From Escherichia phage N2, in sequence record ON645936.1: a stretch of DNA of 64,000 nucleotides, one strand, 5' to 3'. Of the stretch, positions 1 to 49,456 are shown piece by piece; the stretch's first letter is position 1, and each line of letters opens with the position of its first letter. The notes under the pieces were generated by a model. The model saw only the letters and a list, made by a program, of their open reading frames with translations. It had not been told where the DNA came from and searched no databases. The translations under genes and the position numbers were made by a program.

Positions 1-2925
<2,925 letters not shown>

Positions 2926-40630: not shown

Positions 40631-42218
<1,588 letters not shown>

Positions 42219-42226
42219 AATAAAAT

Positions 42227-42240
42227 GGGCCTTGCGGCCC
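42227..42240 (-). promoter_or_regulatory. hairpin bridging a distant SD (GGAG) to the denA start codon
   Basis: TAAGGAGU-GGGCC GCAA GGCCC-AUUUUAUU-AUG on minus strand. Confidence 0.45.
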
Positions 42241-42245
42241 ACTCC

Positions 42246-43424
42246 TTAAAAATATTTTTTAAAACTCATCATAACTTTATCATCAACATCATTATCAATC
42301 TGTGCTACAAGGTAAGATGACAGTTCTACTTCTTGTGGTGCAGATTGAACATTATCAGAATTAAGGTATTCACGAATCCAAGGATATGGATGTTTAACCG
42401 GAGCATCGGTAATTGGACATGGAAGACCACACTGTTTCATACGAGATACAGTTAAGTAATCAATAAAGCTCCACATGCTATTTGTATTTAATCCAGGAAC
42501 ATCGCCATCTTTAAATAAATGAACTGCCCAATCTTTTTCTTGGCGGTTAACTTCCATGAAAATATCAACTGCTTCTTGTTCACACTCTTGAGCAATTTTA
42601 ACCCATTCATCACCATCAGTACCGGATTGAAGTTGACGAATAATATATTGAGTGCCTTTAAGGTGAAGCTGCTCATCACGTGCAATGAACTTCATAATCT
42701 TGGCATTACCTTCCATGATTTCCATGTTCTTATGGAAGTTAAAGGTACATGCAAAAGATACATAAAAACGAATAGCTTCTAAGGCATTAATAACGTGCAA
42801 ACAGAGGTAAAGAGATTTCATTAGTGCTCGTTTAGCTTCGGCTTCTTGTTTAATAGCTCGATTTAAACGAAAAACAGCATCAGGAGATTCTTTAGCTAGT
42901 TCTGTAAATTCTTTAGCATTTTCCCATTCACGGGTTTTAGTCAGAACATCATCATAATAGCGACCGATAGATTCAGCACGTTTCATAATAGCTTTATCTA
43001 GTACAATCTCATCAAATACCTTCGATGGATCAGTATAAAGATTTCGCATGATATGAGTATATGAACGACTGTGAATAGTTTCACTAAAAGTCCATGTAGC
43101 AACCCATGTATCAAGGCTTGGGTCTGAAATTAATGACATAAGTACAGCAGACGGCGCACGACCTTGAATACTATCAAGTAATGATTGATACTTCAGATTA
43201 TTAGTAAAAATATTTTGTTGATACTGAGGAAGCTTATTAAACTGTGCAGCATCCATCATCAAGTTTACTTCTTCCGGACGCCAGAAAAACGAGAGCGAAC
43301 GTTCAATAAGTTCTTCAAATACTCGATGCCGTTGAATATCATAACGCGCAATACCAAGACCTGAACCAAAAAACATAGGTTCTTTTAAAACATCGACCTG
43401 TTTAGTATTAAAAACTGTACTCAT
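42246..43424 (-). CDS. nrdB: ribonucleotide reductase small subunit, uninterrupted
   Basis: 392-aa continuous ORF with di-iron/radical subunit character. Confidence 0.93.
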   Translation of the reverse strand: MSTVFNTKQVDVLKEPMFFGSGLGIARYDIQRHRVFEELIERSLSFFWRPEEVNLMMDAAQFNKLPQYQQNIFTNNLKYQSLLDSIQGRAPSAVLMSLISDPSLDTWVATWTFSETIHSRSYTHIMRNLYTDPSKVFDEIVLDKAIMKRAESIGRYYDDVLTKTREWENAKEFTELAKESPDAVFRLNRAIKQEAEAKRALMKSLYLCLHVINALEAIRFYVSFACTFNFHKNMEIMEGNAKIMKFIARDEQLHLKGTQYIIRQLQSGTDGDEWVKIAQECEQEAVDIFMEVNRQEKDWAVHLFKDGDVPGLNTNSMWSFIDYLTVSRMKQCGLPCPITDAPVKHPYPWIREYLNSDNVQSAPQEVELSSYLVAQIDNDVDDKVMMSFKKYF

Positions 43425-45016
43425 TATTTTGTCCTGTAAACTAAATTTCCACAGTCCCAGATTCTTCTAAGACCATTTGCATAACAATTTTCTACTTCAG
43501 TTATTGTATCATCATAATTTTTAAGCTTGTTTTTAAGCTTATGTTTCATATAGCTTGAGCGGTGAAATACCTCTCCTTTATCGACGTACCAATAACATGG
43601 CTCAGAGATATGACTAAATTCCATGACAGAGTCATAAACATTTGATAATGTACTGCACCATCTTCGATTGCCATAAGATAGACAATTAATTCCTTTTAAT
43701 AATTTTGAGGCTCCTCCTACAACACAAACCCCTAATTTTGAACACATCCTTAAAAGTTCATCACCTGAGCTATATCTAGATTTACCGATAGAAATAATTT
43801 GAACTAACTCATTATTGTAATAAAGTCCTTTATACGTATGAGCTCCTGAGCAAAATCCTTGAAGATGATTCTTATTAATAAATTCTTTTGCCTCATCCTT
43901 ATTAACAAACCGTGCTTTGCATTTTCGGGCTGGTATTCTTTCTGATAATCCTAATTTATGCTTTATAATGGATTTCCAGATCTCTCTTTTTGTATCATCA
44001 ATCCATTCATTTTCGAAGATGTGAAGTAATTGAATTCCTTGTGCTTCACACATCTCTGTCTTCATCAAATGATAAGTTTCTTTAATTTTATCTGTTTCCT
44101 TTGACCCGCTAGAATGCCAATAAATTCCATCGTATTCTATAGCCAATTTTTTCTCAGGAATGTAAATATCTAATTCATACGGAGGAATAATTTTTCTAGT
44201 TTCTACGCAATCAAATCCTAGATCTAAAATGAATTGCTCTATAGAACTTTGAGTATAATGAACGTCAATTAGTCCTTTGGATGAAAGAGCTCTATAAGCC
44301 GTCATCCGAGAACAATTTGCTAATTGTTGTAGTTCTTCTATAGAAATTTTGTAATTGATTTTATCTAGTATATCATGATTAATATGACCGTTATTTTTAA
44401 TAGATTTTCCTATAGATGAATATAACGATGCCTTATATTCTTCAGTCCAATTTAATTTAGTCTTCTTAGATTTTTCGCGAGATTTTCTAGAATGCAGAAT
44501 ATCAACTGATTTACCGTTTTCTATAACTTTTCTCGCTTCTTTCACACTTTCTAATTGTGAATTATGCGTTACCCCATATCGTTCAATTAAAGTTTTTCTA
44601 TTTTTATTTCTTGAAATTTTTTGATGAGTTGTTCCATATTTTTCTAAAGAATTTTTGTGTTGAAGTTCAGACAAATATTTTTTATATTTTTCTTTTCCGC
44701 CAAAATTTGTATCACGGCTTTGAATTCTCTTATCCGCGAAAAATATCCCTGCGCAGGATTTACTACATGTTGCTGGAAATACACGTTTCTTTGCTGTTTT
44801 CAGAGAAATGAAATTTCCACAAACTGCACATTTTAGATCGTTAATGTCAATGCCTTCCATAATTTGGAACACATTGAGCTTAAAATCTATTCCATCAGTT
44901 AGAAGAGCTTTATCTTCTTCTGTTAGTCTAGATTTAAGTTTTTCTTCTCCAAATGGAAGAAACTTTCCGTTTTTGTATATATTATCAAACATAGCGTTAT
45001 TCTTAGTTAACCACAT
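43424..45016 (-). CDS. multidomain putative homing endonuclease: Cys-pair zinc ribbon, Lys-rich linker, Vsr/DUF559-like PD-(D/E)xK motif, unknown C-terminal domain
   Basis: 530-aa ORF between nrdB and nrdA; motifs CAVCGN..CSKSCAG and YELDIYIPEKKLAIEYDGIYWHS. Confidence 0.6.
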   Translation of the reverse strand: MWLTKNNAMFDNIYKNGKFLPFGEEKLKSRLTEEDKALLTDGIDFKLNVFQIMEGIDINDLKCAVCGNFISLKTAKKRVFPATCSKSCAGIFFADKRIQSRDTNFGGKEKYKKYLSELQHKNSLEKYGTTHQKISRNKNRKTLIERYGVTHNSQLESVKEARKVIENGKSVDILHSRKSREKSKKTKLNWTEEYKASLYSSIGKSIKNNGHINHDILDKINYKISIEELQQLANCSRMTAYRALSSKGLIDVHYTQSSIEQFILDLGFDCVETRKIIPPYELDIYIPEKKLAIEYDGIYWHSSGSKETDKIKETYHLMKTEMCEAQGIQLLHIFENEWIDDTKREIWKSIIKHKLGLSERIPARKCKARFVNKDEAKEFINKNHLQGFCSGAHTYKGLYYNNELVQIISIGKSRYSSGDELLRMCSKLGVCVVGGASKLLKGINCLSYGNRRWCSTLSNVYDSVMEFSHISEPCYWYVDKGEVFHRSSYMKHKLKNKLKNYDDTITEVENCYANGLRRIWDCGNLVYRTK

Positions 45017-45032
45017 CCTTGTGGTAATTATA

Positions 45033-47297
45033 TCATAATTTACAGGATGAACAATCTTCAGCTTTTGGAGTTTCTATTTCGTAATCATCAGTACCGGAAC
45101 CGTCGCGGGTATTATGATAATAGAAATTTTTTCCGCCAAAATACCAAAAATACAAAAGGTCATCAATCATTATTGACATTGGAACCTTTCCTTTTGGAAA
45201 AATCTGCGGGTCATAATATGTATTCGCTGAAGCTGATTGACATACCCATTTCAACATAATAGCTACTTGCGTAAGATAAGGTTTATTACCTTTCTTAGCT
45301 AATTTCCACGTATAATCATAGAGGTCTATGTTATGCTCAATATTGGGCACGACTTGATTAAAGGAACCCTCTTTTGATTCTTTAACAGAGACTGGTCCAC
45401 GTGGAGGCTCGATACCGTTTGTACTGTTAGAAACTTGGGAAGATGACTCACATGGCATAAGTGCTGATAATGTGCTATTACGGATGCCAAAGAGCTTAAG
45501 GTCTTCCCGCAGCGACGACCAGTCACAAACGTATTTTGGAGCTGCGATTTGGTCAATCTTTTTATTGTACCAGTCGATAGGTAATTCGCCTCGAGACCAA
45601 CGAGTGTCTGAATAATATTCGCAAGGTCCTTTTTCTTTGGCGAGCTTAATGGATGCTTTAATGAGTCCATACTGTAATCTCTCAAATAGTTCATGTGTTA
45701 AATCGTTAGCATCTTCATAAGAAGCAAAGTTACTTGCCAGCCAAGCTGCATAGTTAGTAACACCTACACCGAGGTTACGACGCTTTTTAGCTTTTTCTGC
45801 TTCAGGAACTGGATATCCTTGGTAATCCAAAAGATTATCAAGAGCACGAACTTGAACTTCTGCCAATTCATTAATTTTATCTTGGTCTTGCCAATCGAAG
45901 TTATCTAATACAAATGCGCTAAGGGTACACAATCCAATTTCAGCATCAGGACTATTCACATCATTTGTTGGAATAGCAATTTCACAGCACAAGTTACTCT
46001 GACGAATAGGTGCCTTTTCACGAATAAACGGAGTATAGTTATTCGTATTATCAATGAACTGCACATAAATCCTTGCTGTTCCTGAACGTTCAGTCATGAG
46101 CAATTCAAATAGTTCACGGGCTTTAATACGCTTTTTGCGAATATTAGGGTCTTTTTCTGCGGCTTCATACAATTCACGGAAACGGTCTTGGTCTTTAAAA
46201 TAAGAATAATAAAGCTCGCCACCCATTTCGTGTGGACTGAACAAAGTAATGTAGTCGTTCTTTCCAAAACGTTCCATCATCAAATCATTCAGTTGAACGC
46301 CATAATCCATATGACGGATACGGTTTTCTTCTACGCCTTTGTTATTTTTCAAAACGAGAAGATTTTCAACTTCCAAATGCCAAATAGGATAATAAGCAGT
46401 AGCAGCGCCGCCACGAATTCCGCCTTGTGAACATGATTTAACAGCAGTCTGAAAATGTTTCCAAAAAGGAATAACGCCAGTATGACGCACTTCACCTGTG
46501 CCAATCTTAGAACCTTCGGCACGAATCATACCAACGTTAATACCAATTCCAGCGCGTTTGGAGATATATTCAACAATTGAAGCAGAAGCCTTATTGATAG
46601 ACTTCAGCGAATCACCTGCTTCAATAACAACGCATGAACTAAACTGTCGAGTTGGAGTACGACAACCAGCCATAATAGGAGTTGGCAATGAAATCTGTCG
46701 AGTAGATACTGCTTCATAAAAACGGATAACGTGTTTTAATCTATCAACAGGTTCATCTTGATGCAATGCCATTCCAATAGTCATAAATGCAAACTGTGGA
46801 GTTTCATAAATTTGACCAGTGGTTTTATCTTTAACGAGATATTTTTCTTTTAATTGCATCGCCCCGGAATAAGTAAATTCCATATCCCGCTCGTGCTTAA
46901 TTTTTGATTCTAAAAATGTAATTTCTTCTGCTGAATATTTTGACAATAATTCAGGGTCATATTTACCTTCATTTACACAGTAAGAAATATGGTCAATAAA
47001 TGAACGGGGCTCATACTGTCCGTACACGTGTTTACGAAGAGCAAACATTAAACAGCGTGCAGCTACGTATTGATAATCAGGCTCTTCAACTGAAATAGAA
47101 TTCGCAGCAGCCTTAATTACAATGGTTTGAATGTCATCAGTGGTCATTCCATCACGGAGATATGATTTAATATTTTCATATAATTCATAAGGATCTACTG
47201 ATGTTCCTTCAGCTGCCCAAGATAAAACTTTAATAATTTTTTGTGGGTCAAAGCTCTGAGAAACACCACTACTTTTGATAACATTAATTAATTGCAT
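45033..47297 (-). CDS. nrdA: ribonucleotide reductase large subunit
   Basis: 754-aa ORF from MQLINVIKSSG with GAGGA SD; the 29-codon upstream extension in the track is rejected. Confidence 0.95.
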   Translation of the reverse strand: MQLINVIKSSGVSQSFDPQKIIKVLSWAAEGTSVDPYELYENIKSYLRDGMTTDDIQTIVIKAAANSISVEEPDYQYVAARCLMFALRKHVYGQYEPRSFIDHISYCVNEGKYDPELLSKYSAEEITFLESKIKHERDMEFTYSGAMQLKEKYLVKDKTTGQIYETPQFAFMTIGMALHQDEPVDRLKHVIRFYEAVSTRQISLPTPIMAGCRTPTRQFSSCVVIEAGDSLKSINKASASIVEYISKRAGIGINVGMIRAEGSKIGTGEVRHTGVIPFWKHFQTAVKSCSQGGIRGGAATAYYPIWHLEVENLLVLKNNKGVEENRIRHMDYGVQLNDLMMERFGKNDYITLFSPHEMGGELYYSYFKDQDRFRELYEAAEKDPNIRKKRIKARELFELLMTERSGTARIYVQFIDNTNNYTPFIREKAPIRQSNLCCEIAIPTNDVNSPDAEIGLCTLSAFVLDNFDWQDQDKINELAEVQVRALDNLLDYQGYPVPEAEKAKKRRNLGVGVTNYAAWLASNFASYEDANDLTHELFERLQYGLIKASIKLAKEKGPCEYYSDTRWSRGELPIDWYNKKIDQIAAPKYVCDWSSLREDLKLFGIRNSTLSALMPCESSSQVSNSTNGIEPPRGPVSVKESKEGSFNQVVPNIEHNIDLYDYTWKLAKKGNKPYLTQVAIMLKWVCQSASANTYYDPQIFPKGKVPMSIMIDDLLYFWYFGGKNFYYHNTRDGSGTDDYEIETPKAEDCSSCKL

Positions 47298-47352: not shown

Positions 47353-48084
47353 ATGAAATCTGGAATATATGCTATTATAAACACTAAAACTAATAAGCAC
47401 TATATAGGAAGTGCAATTAATTTTGAAGAACGATGGAAACGACACTTTAAAGATTTAGATAATGGAAATCATCATTCAATAAAGCTGCAGCGTTCTTATA
47501 ATAAGCATGGTAAAGATGCTTTCGTATGTAAAATCATAGAAGAACTTCCATACGAAAAATCTATCATTATTGAACGTGAAAATTATTGGATGCATGAATA
47601 TGACTCAAAGGAAAATGGGTATAATATAGCAGACGCATCGTTTGGGGATACCTTATCTCATCACCCAAGAAAGCAAGAAATCCTTAATAAAATTTCAAAT
47701 GCAATTAAAAATAATAATTCAAAATTATCACCAGAAGAACTTAAGCAAAAACATGGTAGACCTAGAGACATCAAAGGTAAAACTATAGAAGAACACTATG
47801 GGTTAGATCGTGCTATAGAAATAAGCAAAAAGTTCCAAGAAAGAAACGCTGCACTTAATATGAAAGGCATCAATAATCCATATTACGGACAGACGCATAC
47901 CAATGAAGTTAGAAAACGAATTTCTGACTCACAGAGAGGTAAAAAGAAACCCCATCTAAGAGTAAGTATAGATGGGGTAGAATATCCAACAATAGCAGAA
48001 GCTGTGCGTCAAACCGGAATAAGCAGAAAACTTATATCTAAAAGATGCGCTCTAGATTGCTGGGAATCATATTTATACTGCTAA
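47353..48084 (+). CDS. free-standing GIY-YIG homing endonuclease of the I-TevI family
   Basis: 243-aa ORF; N-terminal [46 protein letters not shown] closely parallels I-TevI catalytic domain; TATAAATA late promoter and AGGAG SD upstream. Confidence 0.85.
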
Positions 48085-48341: not shown

Positions 48342-48653
48342 TTATACCGCCATTTTTCCTTTCAAGACACCGTGGGACTGATAATCTTTGAGAACGAAAT
48401 CTTTAGGCCTGAGTTTAAGAATGTATTCCAATTGTTCTTTAGTAGAAAGATAACGGAATTTATAAGGTAATCCGCCTATTACCAGTTCACAAAGCTCTTT
48501 AGATTCACGACGCAAAATTTCTTTACATTGTTCTACGTGATTCATATAGATATGAGTATTACCACCAGAAAATATCAAATCTCCTGGAATAAGATTACAC
48601 ATCTTAGCTACAATATGAACTAACGCAGCATATGATGCAATATTAAATGGAAG
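48342..48653 (-). CDS. td: thymidylate synthase, exon 2
   Basis: Encodes LPFNIASYA... ThyA C-terminal region; joins in frame to exon 1 after intron removal. Confidence 0.9.
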   Translation of the reverse strand, partial: LPFNIASYAALVHIVAKMCNLIPGDLIFSGGNTHIYMNHVEQCKEILRRESKELCELVIGGLPYKFRYLSTKEQLEYILKLRPKDFVLKDYQSHGVLKGKMAV

Positions 48654-48907
48654 CATTATGTTCAGATAAGGTCGTTAATCTTATCCCGGAATTATATCCA
48701 GCTGCATGTCACCATACAGATCAGACTATATCTCCATCTTGATGAAGCAAGATGTCTATCGTTTCGAGTCACTTGACCCTACTCCCCAAAGGGATAGTCG
48801 TTAGGCATTTAGTTCAAAAGAACATTTAGCACGGGATTGTCTACTAGAGAGGTTCCCCGTTTAGATAGATTACAAGTATAAGTCACCTTATACTCAGGCC
48901 TCAATTA
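48654..48907 (-). ncRNA. group I self-splicing intron in td, ORF-less (about 254 nt)
   Basis: Starts UAAUUGAGGCCUGAGUAUAAGGUGACUUAUACUUGUAAUCUAUCUAAACGGGGAACC after exon-1 ...CUUGGGU, ends ...CUGAACAUAAUG before exon 2, matching remembered T4 td intron ends. Confidence 0.85.
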
Positions 48908-49456
48908 ACCCAAGAACACGTCAACACTTCTTTGATACCACTGCAAATCCAAATAGCCATTACGCACATTAAACTGATAGAACATATGACAAGGCGGTAA
49001 TGCCATTTGCTTGAGTTCAGCTGGATTCCATGCAGAAACAACTTGACGTCTATCATTTGGCAGTTTTTTAATACGATCAATAACTTCTACAATTTGGTCT
49101 ACACCACCAAAATCACGCCACTGTTTTCCATAAATTGGACCAAGTTCACCACTATGATATCCTAAATCTTTTGCTTGATTTTCGTAATTTTCATCCCAGA
49201 CTGTTTTGCCTTGAATTAATGAATCGTGTTGAATTAATCGTAAATCATTGACATTTGTGCTTCCTGATAAAAACCAAAGTAGCTCAGCAATGCAAGCTTT
49301 CCAGGCGAGCTTCTTAGTTGTTACTGCAGGAAAACCTTTAGTTAAATCCCAGCGTAATTTAGTACCGAACAAAGCAATTGTTCCTGTGCCTGTTCGGTCA
49401 TCAGTTTCATAGCCATTTTCAAAAATGTCTTTAATTAAATCTTGGTATTGTTTCAT
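48908..49456 (-). CDS. td: thymidylate synthase, exon 1
   Basis: 183 codons ending ...QRSVDVFLG, followed by in-frame UAA at intron start. Confidence 0.9.

Follow-up and report, generated by a model that had tools for sequence, protein, structure and literature searches.

In the 64,000-nt stretch of Escherichia phage N2 DNA analysed here (ON645936.1; the window), nrdB has no intron and adjoins a large nuclease gene. The initial annotation took this pair for the configuration expected of a phage that excludes or targets intron-containing or otherwise variant nrdB alleles of its relatives, which raises the question of whether the two features belong together. It is highly probable that they do not: the nuclease is Hef, a known selfish homing endonuclease, nrdB is intron-less since recombination split hef from the intron that travels with it, and the locus is an ordinary one. 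As first stated, the finding matters little, as it rediscovers Hef and treats the commonest state of nrdB as special.

In the ORF map, nrdB was one unbroken ORF of 392 codons (392 aa) on the minus strand, the product of which matched Pfam PF00268 (Ribonuc_red_sm) with E = 1e-36. The alignment showed that it is colinear with the joined exons 1 and 2 of the T4, SG1, and LH2 nrdB genes; the two exons lie 598, 420, and 591 nt apart in these phages, respectively, and 0 nt apart in the window, where the two blocks abut. In T4, exon 1 ends with ...TTTGCGT and exon 2 opens with GTACCTTT, and the window reads ...TTTGCAT/GTACCTTT at the same place (slash, exon junction), encoding F-A-C-T-F. The T4-type nrdB group I intron, whose ribozyme lies between nt 676 and 677, is therefore missing from the contiguous exons of the window, and the empty site falls between window positions 42749 and 42748. 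This site was placed by direct junction comparison, an ORF-based boundary search being uninformative. No intron was found in the window nrdB by Rfam at E <= 0.1 in a scan that detected the td intron, and RF00028 was absent from it in searches that detected the 300-nt SP21535 and 309-nt CJY920 nrdB introns. Thus, the ORF map, the exon alignment, and Rfam agree with the continuous intron-less ORF that had been annotated, and careful alignment with the T4 exons, which located the empty site, revealed no intron-like insertion.

The 392 codons of the window, as compared to the 388 of T4, are nothing special: the intron-less nrdB genes of GEP001 and RB32 are likewise 1179 nt long, and T4 nrdB is shortened by two 6-nt deletions, both within a patch of divergent sequence (nt ~525-590). 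At nt 675 (window 42750), G was present in 7/7 intron-containing alleles and A in 4/4 intron-less alleles, and the window has A.

The annotation of the adjacent ORF as a nuclease gene also held, its 530-aa product having a Vsr-like core. This product was identical to Hef of phage U5 (AY262133, ABI48935) at 527/530 residues (99.4%) over the full length, with 99.6% identity between the genes at the DNA level, and it matched PHROG 3339 'homing endonuclease' with E = 3e-151. Judged by its sequence, the ORF is hef, a homing endonuclease gene of the selfish, free-standing kind, carried here by a T4-like phage (Tequatrovirus), and the Hef system has been described before (Sandegren, Nord and Sjoberg, Nucleic Acids Res 2005; referred to in PMC2988022 and PMC2790892). 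The gene begins with a conserved ATG with an AAGG Shine-Dalgarno sequence, and its stop codon overlaps the nrdB ATG (TAATG). In U5, hef occupies the same nrdA-nrdB slot with the same overlap, whereas its annotated start is 14 codons earlier, at an ATG where the window has AAG, and the nrdB 5' haplotype of U5 departs from that of the window from nt ~41 onward. According to the ORF map and the T4 and U5 annotations, hef fills the nrdA-nrdB spacer in place of T4 mobE and nrdB.1, the insertion extending from 7 nt past the nrdA stop up to the nrdB ATG. The intact nrdA upstream of it equals T4 nrdA in length and has the Pfam ATP-cone, RNR all-alpha, and RNR barrel domains. A scan of positions 42100-45300 gave 16 promoter-like sites against 15.2 expected, i.e. 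the chance level, and no terminator-like sites.

Features of the nrdA-hef-nrdB region, with window coordinates and the basis of each assignment
Feature	Window position	Strand	Basis
nrdB, class Ia ribonucleotide reductase small subunit	42246..43424	-	ORF, Pfam PF00268, exon colinearity
nrdB nt 289-773, spanning the empty intron site	42652..43136	-	25/27 informative sites of recipient type
Empty T4-type nrdB group I intron site, GCAT/GTACC	42748..42749	-	Junction comparison, intron boundaries of six relatives
Recombination junction interval, nrdB nt 274-288	43137..43151	-	Maximum chi-square, alignment
nrdB nt 1-273, hef-linked haplotype	43152..43424	-	40/40 informative sites of donor type
Polymorphic patch immediately 5' to the conserved FFWRPEE codons, nrdB nt 114-135	43290..43311	-	Alignment
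hef, free-standing homing endonuclease gene, 530 aa	43424..45016	-	U5 Hef identity, PHROG 3339, junctions
Hef C-terminal domain with GNAT fold, probably of the Mom family, aa ~357-530	43427..43948	-	
Hef Vsr-like (EDxHD family) nuclease core, aa 254-354	43955..44257	-	Residue counterparts in I-Bth0305I
Hef zinc ribbon, aa ~60-92 (C63, C66, C84, C88)	44741..44839	-	Cys conservation, family profile
nrdA stop codon (45033-45035) and left hef insertion boundary, TGATATAATT/ACCACAAGGATG	45025..45035	-	Alignment with hef-less GEP001 and RB32
nrdA, ribonucleotide reductase large subunit, 754 aa (MQLINV...), intact	45033..47297	-	ORF, Pfam, T4 length
nrdA 3' patch of GEP001/U5 type, immediately upstream of hef	45057..45158	-	Informative sites q2243-2344, mismatch table, alignment

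Across all 16 hef+ records, which represent 14 phages, DNA identity within hef was never below 99.4%, compared with 68% for the next best relative. Mismatches among the hef carriers numbered 0-2 per 100 nt within hef and up to 18 per 100 nt in nrdA and nrdB on either side, reaching 42 per 100 nt in a divergent exon-1 patch of U5. A near-identical hef in genomes with differing flanks is the signature of a mobile element. Homing endonucleases of this kind cause marker exclusion and are preferentially inherited.

Among 912 nrdB-matching records, the nrdB intron was present in 129 (~14%) and hef in 16. An intron-less nrdB is the default, majority state of T4-like phages and not part of a hef configuration. 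Every one of the 16 GenBank hef+ records had the intron, as did Logan contig L011; this association is inflated by common ancestry among the 14 phages. Therefore, an intron-less nrdB beside the nuclease is not the expected configuration that it had been taken for; it is a rare uncoupled state, seen also in Logan contig L010, which is hef+ and intron-less like the window. The hef carriers have the same intron at the same site every time, with nested ORF deletions and lengths of 1083, about 590, 420, 309, and 300 nt. The 1083-nt form belongs to U5 and contains a long I-TevIII ORF (220 aa counted from the first ATG), while the window nrdB has no such insert. Trans or collaborative homing is defined by a non-mobile intron within ~2 kb of an endonuclease gene, and this arrangement exists in all 16 GenBank hef+ records and L011, with no such intron in the window nrdB. 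A group I intron was considered as the interruption of nrdA in L010 and L011 and was rejected, with no Rfam match at E <= 0.01.

The nrdB haplotypes indicate how the uncoupling came about. The first 273 nt of the window nrdB were identical to those of the hef+ phages LH2 and CJY920 and of contigs L010 and L011, and differed by about 15% from hef-less GEP001, mainly at synonymous sites; none of the hef-less records matched the window nrdB above 95.7%. Identity with LH2 and CJY920 continued through nt 288, and nt 289-773 were those of intron-less GEP001 but for two private SNPs and nt 309. When LH2 was used as donor and GEP001 as recipient, both parental types having been picked after seeing the data, the informative sites were divided 40/0 (donor/recipient) up to nt 273 and 6/27 thereafter, with a maximum chi-square of 51.9 that was reached in 0/20,000 permutations. 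The breakpoint between the hef-linked haplotype and the intron-less-lineage haplotype thus lies between the informative sites nt 273 and 289. In L010, the junction lies elsewhere, at nt 652-674: this contig has the haplotype of intron+ L011 as far as nt 651 and leaves it just 2-24 nt ahead of the intron site. Since the two junctions differ, hef and the intron have been uncoupled at least twice.

These haplotypes also bear on precise excision, by which a hef+ intron+ ancestor would have lost the intron by exact deletion (e.g. through spliced RNA or cDNA) with the exons otherwise unchanged. The exon junction is indeed exact and in frame. However, the flanking exons are unlike all sampled hef+ intron+ alleles, and ~485 nt match an intron-less allele, including the -2 marker at nt 675. 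Because excision alone leaves the flanks unaltered, we regard this route as extremely improbable.

The region is mosaic beyond nrdB as well. The nrdA 3' patch differs from hef+ LH2, CJY920, SG1, and SP21535 at 13-15 sites, and the outer flanks are hef+-like, nrdA q1001-2228 resembling SG1 and nrdB nt 1008, 1119, and 1173 resembling LH2, with GEP001-like sequence confined to the inner patches. CJY920 has a GEP001-like patch of its own (nt ~300-590) and retains the intron. Recombination rates are very high in T-even phages. The nrdA-hef-nrdB region is a mosaic on all sides, and the junction could stem from ordinary recombination unrelated to Hef.

The proposal that the nuclease targets relatives stood in part. 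The nrdB region is a target: U5 Hef, 99.4% identical to the window protein, cleaves nrdB, like MobE (PMC2988022, a review of T4 mobile elements), and cuts close to its own locus (PMC3322345), the target being described in these secondary papers as 'cleaves nrdB' and 'close to its locus'. The proposed aim at intron-containing alleles or at the empty site was unsupported, and nothing suggests that Hef acts at the intron site. The near-invariant hef-linked block ends within nt 274-288, which leaves about 390 nt between it and the downstream site, and the sequence spanning the site is of the ordinary intron-less lineage and is shared with hef-less GEP001. The analogous MobE nicks at nt 122-126, i.e. 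at the polymorphic codon 42, rather than at the intron site (PMC2790892), the nick lying inside the nt 114-135 patch; this codon is CGT (Arg) in the window and AAG (Lys) in hef-less GEP001.

It could still be argued that the nuclease works together with the intron-less nrdB as one functional unit directed at intron-containing or variant alleles or at the empty site, with the phage's own allele protected or adapted. Hef does target the nrdB of relatives, and the hef-linked 5' end of nrdB, including the MobE nick patch, is strongly diverged from hef-less alleles, which could reflect target-site immunity. Nevertheless, the presence of the intron in every other GenBank hef carrier implies that an intron-less allele is not required for hef, and the known users of the intron-site region are intron-encoded enzymes of the I-TevIII type, not Hef. 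Together with the position of the junction and the origin of the DNA at the site, these facts make a functional unit very improbable.

Like Hef, T4 MobE is a free-standing endonuclease in the nrdA-nrdB slot that targets the nrdB of relatives (PMC2790892). With MobE, the downstream intron is co-inherited only if the conversion tract reaches it (trans homing with a defunct I-TevIII; Wilson and Edgell 2009, PMC2790892). The mobE+ I-TevIII- recombinants obtained in the laboratory, which have their junctions in the 5' region of nrdB, are the counterpart of the window genotype, and co-conversion declines with distance from the break (PMC2790892). MobE is, however, an HNH nicking enzyme of 141 aa that shares neither sequence nor fold with the 530-aa Vsr-like Hef; inheritance of the intron may depend on Hef in the same way. 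The window and L010 represent natural cases of a homing endonuclease gene parted from its hitch-hiking intron, at two different junctions, and with the 1083-to-300-nt decay series they constitute a field counterpart of the laboratory MobE/I-TevIII trans-homing model.

Based on these observations, the separation of hef from the intron by recombination would have proceeded as described below. U5-type Hef would cut nrdB close to its own locus, as reported for the U5 protein, which differs from that of the window at 3/530 residues. Following the established homing pathway, Hef would break a hef-less genome in a mixed infection, and repair of the break off the hef+ genome would copy hef along with a variable nrdA/nrdB flank. 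The T4-type intron, 676 nt downstream, would normally hitch-hike with hef, as the database pattern implies. The junction at nt 274-288 separates hef and the linked 5' end of nrdB from the intron-less-allele segment over the intron site, and it may have formed in either of two ways. In the first, the allele that hef entered by homing was intron-less, and conversion ended short of the intron site, which would resemble the mobE+ I-TevIII- progeny of T4 x T2 crosses. In the second, the ancestor was hef+ and intron+, and an internal nrdB patch including the intron was overwritten from an intron-less co-infecting phage. The GEP001-like inner patches within hef+-like outer flanks fit the second at least as well as the first. 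Under both alternatives, the intron-less state would be a by-product of recombination and not a functional partner of the nuclease.

The intron-less nrdB of the window might instead be ancestral, if hef first entered an nrdB gene that had no intron, and the intron reached the remaining hef+ phages later through I-TevIII homing with exon co-conversion. The I-TevIII ORF of U5 makes active intron homing into hef+ genomes plausible, and T/A/A at nt 289/294/295 as well as the nrdA 3' patch are common to U5 and the window. On the other hand, the L010 haplotype, which is that of an intron+ allele almost to the site, looks like loss or uncoupling, and the nested decay from 1083 through ~590 and 420 to 309/300 nt speaks for long residence rather than recent gain. 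An ancestral state is thus very improbable, and separation by recombination remains the preferred reading.

The nuclease core of Hef is homologous to that of the EDxHD prototype I-Bth0305I (PDB 3r3p; PMC3239194), with the catalytic Asp and His kept. Hef E259, D283, D296, and H301 correspond to I-Bth0305I E170, D196, N208, and H213, respectively, and Hef D309 is probably the counterpart of D222. Hef thus has the Vsr-like fold with the E...D...H...D catalytic residues, and the I-Bth0305I paper counts phage Hef-type enzymes in the EDxHD family (PMC3239194). Their settings differ: I-Bth0305I is an intron-encoded protein of 266 aa with a C-terminal nuclease and N-terminal NUMOD motifs that cuts at the intron insertion site, whereas Hef is free-standing and has a central nuclease, preceded by a zinc ribbon and DUF7487 repeats and followed by a Mom-family domain.

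This conserved C-terminal domain has the Mom-type GNAT fold (PDB 8bv8; PF25680) and can probably be placed among the DNA-modifying GNAT enzymes related to Mom of phage Mu. Mom itself is a Gly-tRNA-dependent adenine N6 DNA-modifying enzyme (PMC13219725). The assignment was based on fold searches, Pfam matches on relatives, and a weak hhalign match between the Hef family profile and Mu Mom (E = 0.05-0.07). The Pfam Mom model was matched by 8/34 aligned Hef homologs (best 3e-5) and was precomputed on about 11 of the 120 Hef homologs listed. The window Hef gave no match to PF25680 at E <= 1, phmmer with Mu Mom gave none against the 120 listed homologs, and Mom was not among the PDB sequences matched by the Hef family profile at E <= 10. 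Counterparts of Mom H58, R111, R151, and Y159 are conserved in the domain, R111 corresponding to Hef R423 (120/121 family members) and R151 to R452 (121/121). The residues essential in Mom are R111, S124, D149, and R151 (PMC13219725). Mom D149 corresponds to N450 in the window Hef, the family having 95 Asn and 26 Asp at this position (n = 121), and S124 aligns, with uncertainty, to V433, with the invariant S437 of a GGAS motif 4 residues on.

The Mom-REase fusions of jumbo phages share the architecture of Hef, a REase-fold nuclease with Mom (Iyer et al. 2021, PMC7824862), and our literature search found no paper connecting Hef with Mom. Mom modifies DNA; there is no report of Hef doing so. It is conceivable, though we consider it doubtful, that the near-invariant Mom domain is an active DNA-base modifier or a base-flipping reader, in which case the domain and the Vsr-like nuclease would together form a 'cut or mark' homing element in a single chain. 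Such a predicted mark could shield the carrier's own nrdB target, with incoming unmarked genomes being cut. Hef reportedly also cuts the DNA of hef-carrying phages in vitro, which would be explained by a protective mark. If the Mom domain is active, Hef would combine homing endonuclease activity with chemical marking of DNA and would be an experimentally tractable representative of nuclease-Mom fusions, which have so far been predicted only computationally. At the other end of the protein, the four Cys residues of the zinc ribbon were invariant in 34 homologs, and the Hef family profile matched zinc fingers of the FCS/YacG type.

The source of the window is a T4-like phage (Tequatrovirus), and the region is matched by about 1000 phage records, the best of which are Escherichia, Salmonella and Shigella Tequatroviruses with 96-98% identity. 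The nrdB locus lies within a nucleotide-metabolism cluster transcribed from the - strand in T4 order (frd, td, nrdA.2-like gene, nrdA, 530-aa ORF, nrdB, denA, rnlA, alc, and pseT). The initial annotation described nrdB as one continuous 392-codon ORF without an intron, and this was confirmed by the ORF itself, exon colinearity, and Rfam. When aligned with nrdB of T4, SG1, and LH2, window nrdB corresponded to two colinear blocks, which are directly joined in the window and are separated by 598 nt, 420 nt, and 591 nt, respectively, in these phages. T4 exon 1 ends with ...TTTGCGT and exon 2 starts with GTACCTTT, while the window reads ...TTTGCAT directly followed by GTACCTTT; therefore, alignment with the T4 exons, the check proposed earlier, placed the empty insertion site at nrdB nt 676/677. 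No intron-like insertion was found in nrdB by alignment or by Rfam, and the same Rfam scans detected the window td intron as well as nrdB introns lacking an ORF in two relatives.

Hef ('homing endonuclease-like function') reportedly entered the literature in 2005, when Sandegren, Nord and Sjoberg presented it as a homing endonuclease that is free-standing and takes the place of mobE. The nuclease gene noted beside nrdB was borne out: its 530-aa product is identical to U5 Hef (GenBank AY262133) at 527 of 530 residues, and the gene occupies the same position in U5. Hef-type enzymes have been assigned to the Vsr-like EDxHD family in the I-Bth0305I paper (PMC3239194). This identity and the published descriptions together indicate, at the level of sequence, that the window nuclease is Hef, which is already known and characterised. 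The DNA identity of hef is at least 99.4% across all 16 carrier records (14 phages), and the closest relative beyond these carriers is in Yersinia phages (68%). Mismatches between the window and every carrier number 0-2 per 100 nt within hef; the flanking nrdA and nrdB of hef carriers have as many as 18, and the divergent U5 exon-1 patch as many as 42. The insertion starts 7 nt past the nrdA stop and the hef stop codon overlaps the nrdB ATG; hef therefore takes the place of the short spacer of hef-less phages.

An intron-less nrdB adjoining a nuclease gene had been regarded as the configuration expected of a phage that excludes or targets intron-containing or otherwise variant nrdB alleles of relatives. 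Of 912 nrdB-matching records, 129 carried the nrdB intron, which makes an intron-less nrdB the norm. Among hef carriers, however, the situation was reversed, as 16 of 16 records match window hef together with nrdB in two pieces, an association inflated by the shared ancestry of the carriers. The expectation was thus contradicted, and a functional link between the intron-less nrdB and the nuclease is not supported. The intron boundaries were examined closely in six relatives, namely five hef carriers and T4, in which mobE takes the place of hef. All six share the same group I intron at the same nrdB site, and the copies differ by nested deletions of the ORF; with the public-assembly contig L011, the hef-carrier series (SG1, LH2, CJY920, U5, SP21535, and L011) comprises introns of 1083, ~590, 420, 309, and 300 nt, and the ORF-less ribozymes at its short end score over the Rfam threshold. 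This series provides a snapshot of endonuclease-gene decay within a persisting intron. Trans homing of a defunct I-TevIII intron by MobE has been demonstrated experimentally at the nrdB locus (PMC2790892). By analogy, the co-occurrence of hef and the intron is consistent with trans homing, and we infer that inheritance of the intron may depend on the Hef enzyme.

Features of the window and nrdB introns of relatives
Feature	Position or length	Strand	Remark
nrdB	42246-43424	-	single 392-codon ORF; RNR small-subunit family match
Empty nrdB intron insertion site	42749/42748	-	junction comparison
Junction of hef-linked block with intron-less-lineage segment	nrdB nt 274-288 = 43137-43151	-	informative sites
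Polymorphic nrdB patch	nt 114-135 = 43290-43311	-	alignment; includes MobE nicking position
Hef zinc ribbon	aa ~60-92		four Cys, all invariant
Hef DUF7487 repeats	aa ~94-210		helical
Hef HTH	aa ~222-246		weak match
Putative Hef GNAT domain, phage Mu Mom family	aa ~357-530 = 43427-43948	-	fold search, Pfam, profile alignment
Free-standing GIY-YIG gene	47353-48084	+	between nrdA and nrdA.2-like gene
td exon 2	48342-48653	-
td group I intron	48654-48907	-	254 nt; Rfam RF00028, 72.6 bits
td exon 1	48908-49456	-
nrdB intron, U5	1083 nt		220-aa ORF, long I-TevIII ORF
nrdB intron, T4	598 nt		truncated I-TevIII, 97 aa
nrdB intron, LH2	591 nt		truncated I-TevIII, 87 aa
nrdB intron, SG1	420 nt		without I-TevIII ORF
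nrdB intron, CJY920	309 nt		without ORF
nrdB intron, SP21535	300 nt		without ORF

Per-base identity and informative sites were evaluated with LH2 (hef+) and GEP001 (a hef-less, intron-less relative) as parental types, and the resulting mosaic across nrdA-hef-nrdB was clean. The nrdA 3' end directly upstream of hef is of the GEP001 type (13/13 informative sites), the stretch from the hef/nrdB junction to nrdB nt 273 is of the donor (LH2) type (40/40), and nt 289 to ~745, spanning the empty site, is of the recipient (GEP001) type (25/27). The maximum chi-square of 51.9 was reached in none of 20,000 permutations. Window nrdB does not differ from LH2 and CJY920 through nt 288, and equals GEP001 at nt 310-773 except for two private SNPs. 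Since every hef-less match to window nrdB has at most 95.7% identity, the nt 1-273 haplotype has been found only together with hef. Nucleotide 675 (-2 from the intron site) is G in 7 of 7 intron-containing alleles and A in 4 of 4 intron-less alleles including the window; judged from these markers, the DNA spanning the empty site derives from an intron-less lineage. Precise intron excision was ruled out, since the exon flanks across the site are GEP001-like and include the A at nt 675. Recombination parted hef from the intron that usually hitch-hikes with it and so produced the intron-less nrdB.

A look-up of the identical Hef protein in public assemblies gave two contigs, L010 and L011. In L011, hef is accompanied by a 592-nt nrdB intron, whereas in L010 it is followed by an uninterrupted 392-aa nrdB, which has the L011 haplotype to nt 651, then carries the A of intron-less alleles at nt 675 and is GEP001-like further downstream. 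The L010 junction (nrdB nt 652-674) is unlike that of the window, and hef and the intron were therefore uncoupled at least twice. The outer flanks of the window resemble hef+ phages (nrdA q1001-2228 is SG1-like; nrdB nt 1008, 1119, and 1173 are LH2-like), and GEP001-like sequence is limited to inner patches. Two histories fit: hef arrived by homing in a recipient that was mosaic and intron-less, the conversion tract being short, or an internal nrdB patch including the intron was overwritten in a hef+ intron+ ancestor. All genomes examined are mosaic across this region, and the junction may stem from ordinary recombination.

Just upstream of the intron, nrdB exon 1 of T4 and U5 (nt ~515-600) carries a patch that diverges from the window by 34-42% and is absent from other intron-containing phages; its small in-frame deletions account for their 388 or 391 codons (versus 392). 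This patch was probably acquired long ago by co-conversion with a distant intron donor.

MobE nicks hef-less/mobE-less nrdB at nt 122-126, codon 42 (PMC2790892). The strongest divergence between hef-linked and hef-less nrdB alleles is at nt 114-135, and codon 42 is Arg (CGT) in the window versus Lys (AAG) in hef-less phages. Several distinct versions of this patch among the compared phages suggest that a shared endonuclease target has come under selection repeatedly. The divergence may or may not reflect immunity to one of the two enzymes, MobE or Hef.

The AlphaFold2 model of Hef (34 homologs) was confident (mean pLDDT 89). For the putative GNAT domain, the best PDB match by Foldseek was Mom (8bv8, E = 3.5e-6). 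Of the 34 aligned homologs, 8 are hit by the Pfam Mom model, which is already annotated on about 11 further ones, and this GNAT/Mom-type region is the most conserved part of Hef. By profile alignment, Mom H58, R111, R151, and Y159 map to Hef H384, R423, R452, and Y461, conserved in 119, 120, 121, and 120 of 121 family members, respectively. Mom D149 corresponds to N450 (Asn 95/121, Asp 26/121), and S124 has no clear counterpart, with the invariant S437 close by. Mom uses Gly-tRNA to modify double-stranded DNA at adenine N6 (PMC13219725). Jumbo-phage Mom domains, as noted computationally, are mostly fused to REase-fold nucleases, and Iyer et al. 2021 (PMC7824862) proposed that modification serves self-protection and the nuclease serves attack. 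No link between characterised Hef and Mom was found in the literature searched. The predicted Mom-family assignment is a lead rather than a result; the value added here, the natural uncoupling series and this domain, is modest.

The window td intron lacks the entire I-TevI ORF, with 12 nt in place of T4 td gene nt 634-1408. None of the 40 best-ranked phage records had the identical deletion in one piece; the ORF-less td introns of MLP2, Shinka, and 101112UKE3-1 are similar and about 66 nt longer. About 570 nt from this intron, a GIY-YIG gene oriented against all of its neighbours replaces T4 nrdA.1, its 3' end overlapping a convergent DUF5496 gene by 12 nt. Its 243-aa product aligns end to end with I-TevI at 46% identity, and the alignment covers the NUMOD3 motif and the I-TevI DNA-binding domain. 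A free-standing GIY-YIG gene near an ORF-less td intron resembles 'collaborative homing', although the link is non-exclusive, as LH2 has both the GIY-YIG gene and an intron-borne I-TevI.

In L010 (2205-3130) and L011 (~730-1670), a ~920-nt insertion splits nrdA into 477-aa and 329-aa ORFs, and 'alpha subunit (x2)' annotations hint at a split nrdA in FL12, FL23, FL44, F26, and Manna. Within the insertion lies a gene for a 236-aa protein carrying an I-HmuI NUMOD-like domain, and Rfam (E <= 0.01) found no group I intron there. These nrdA genes could be genes-in-pieces like nrdA of Aeromonas phage Aeh1, or could contain an undetected intron. Window nrdA is intact.
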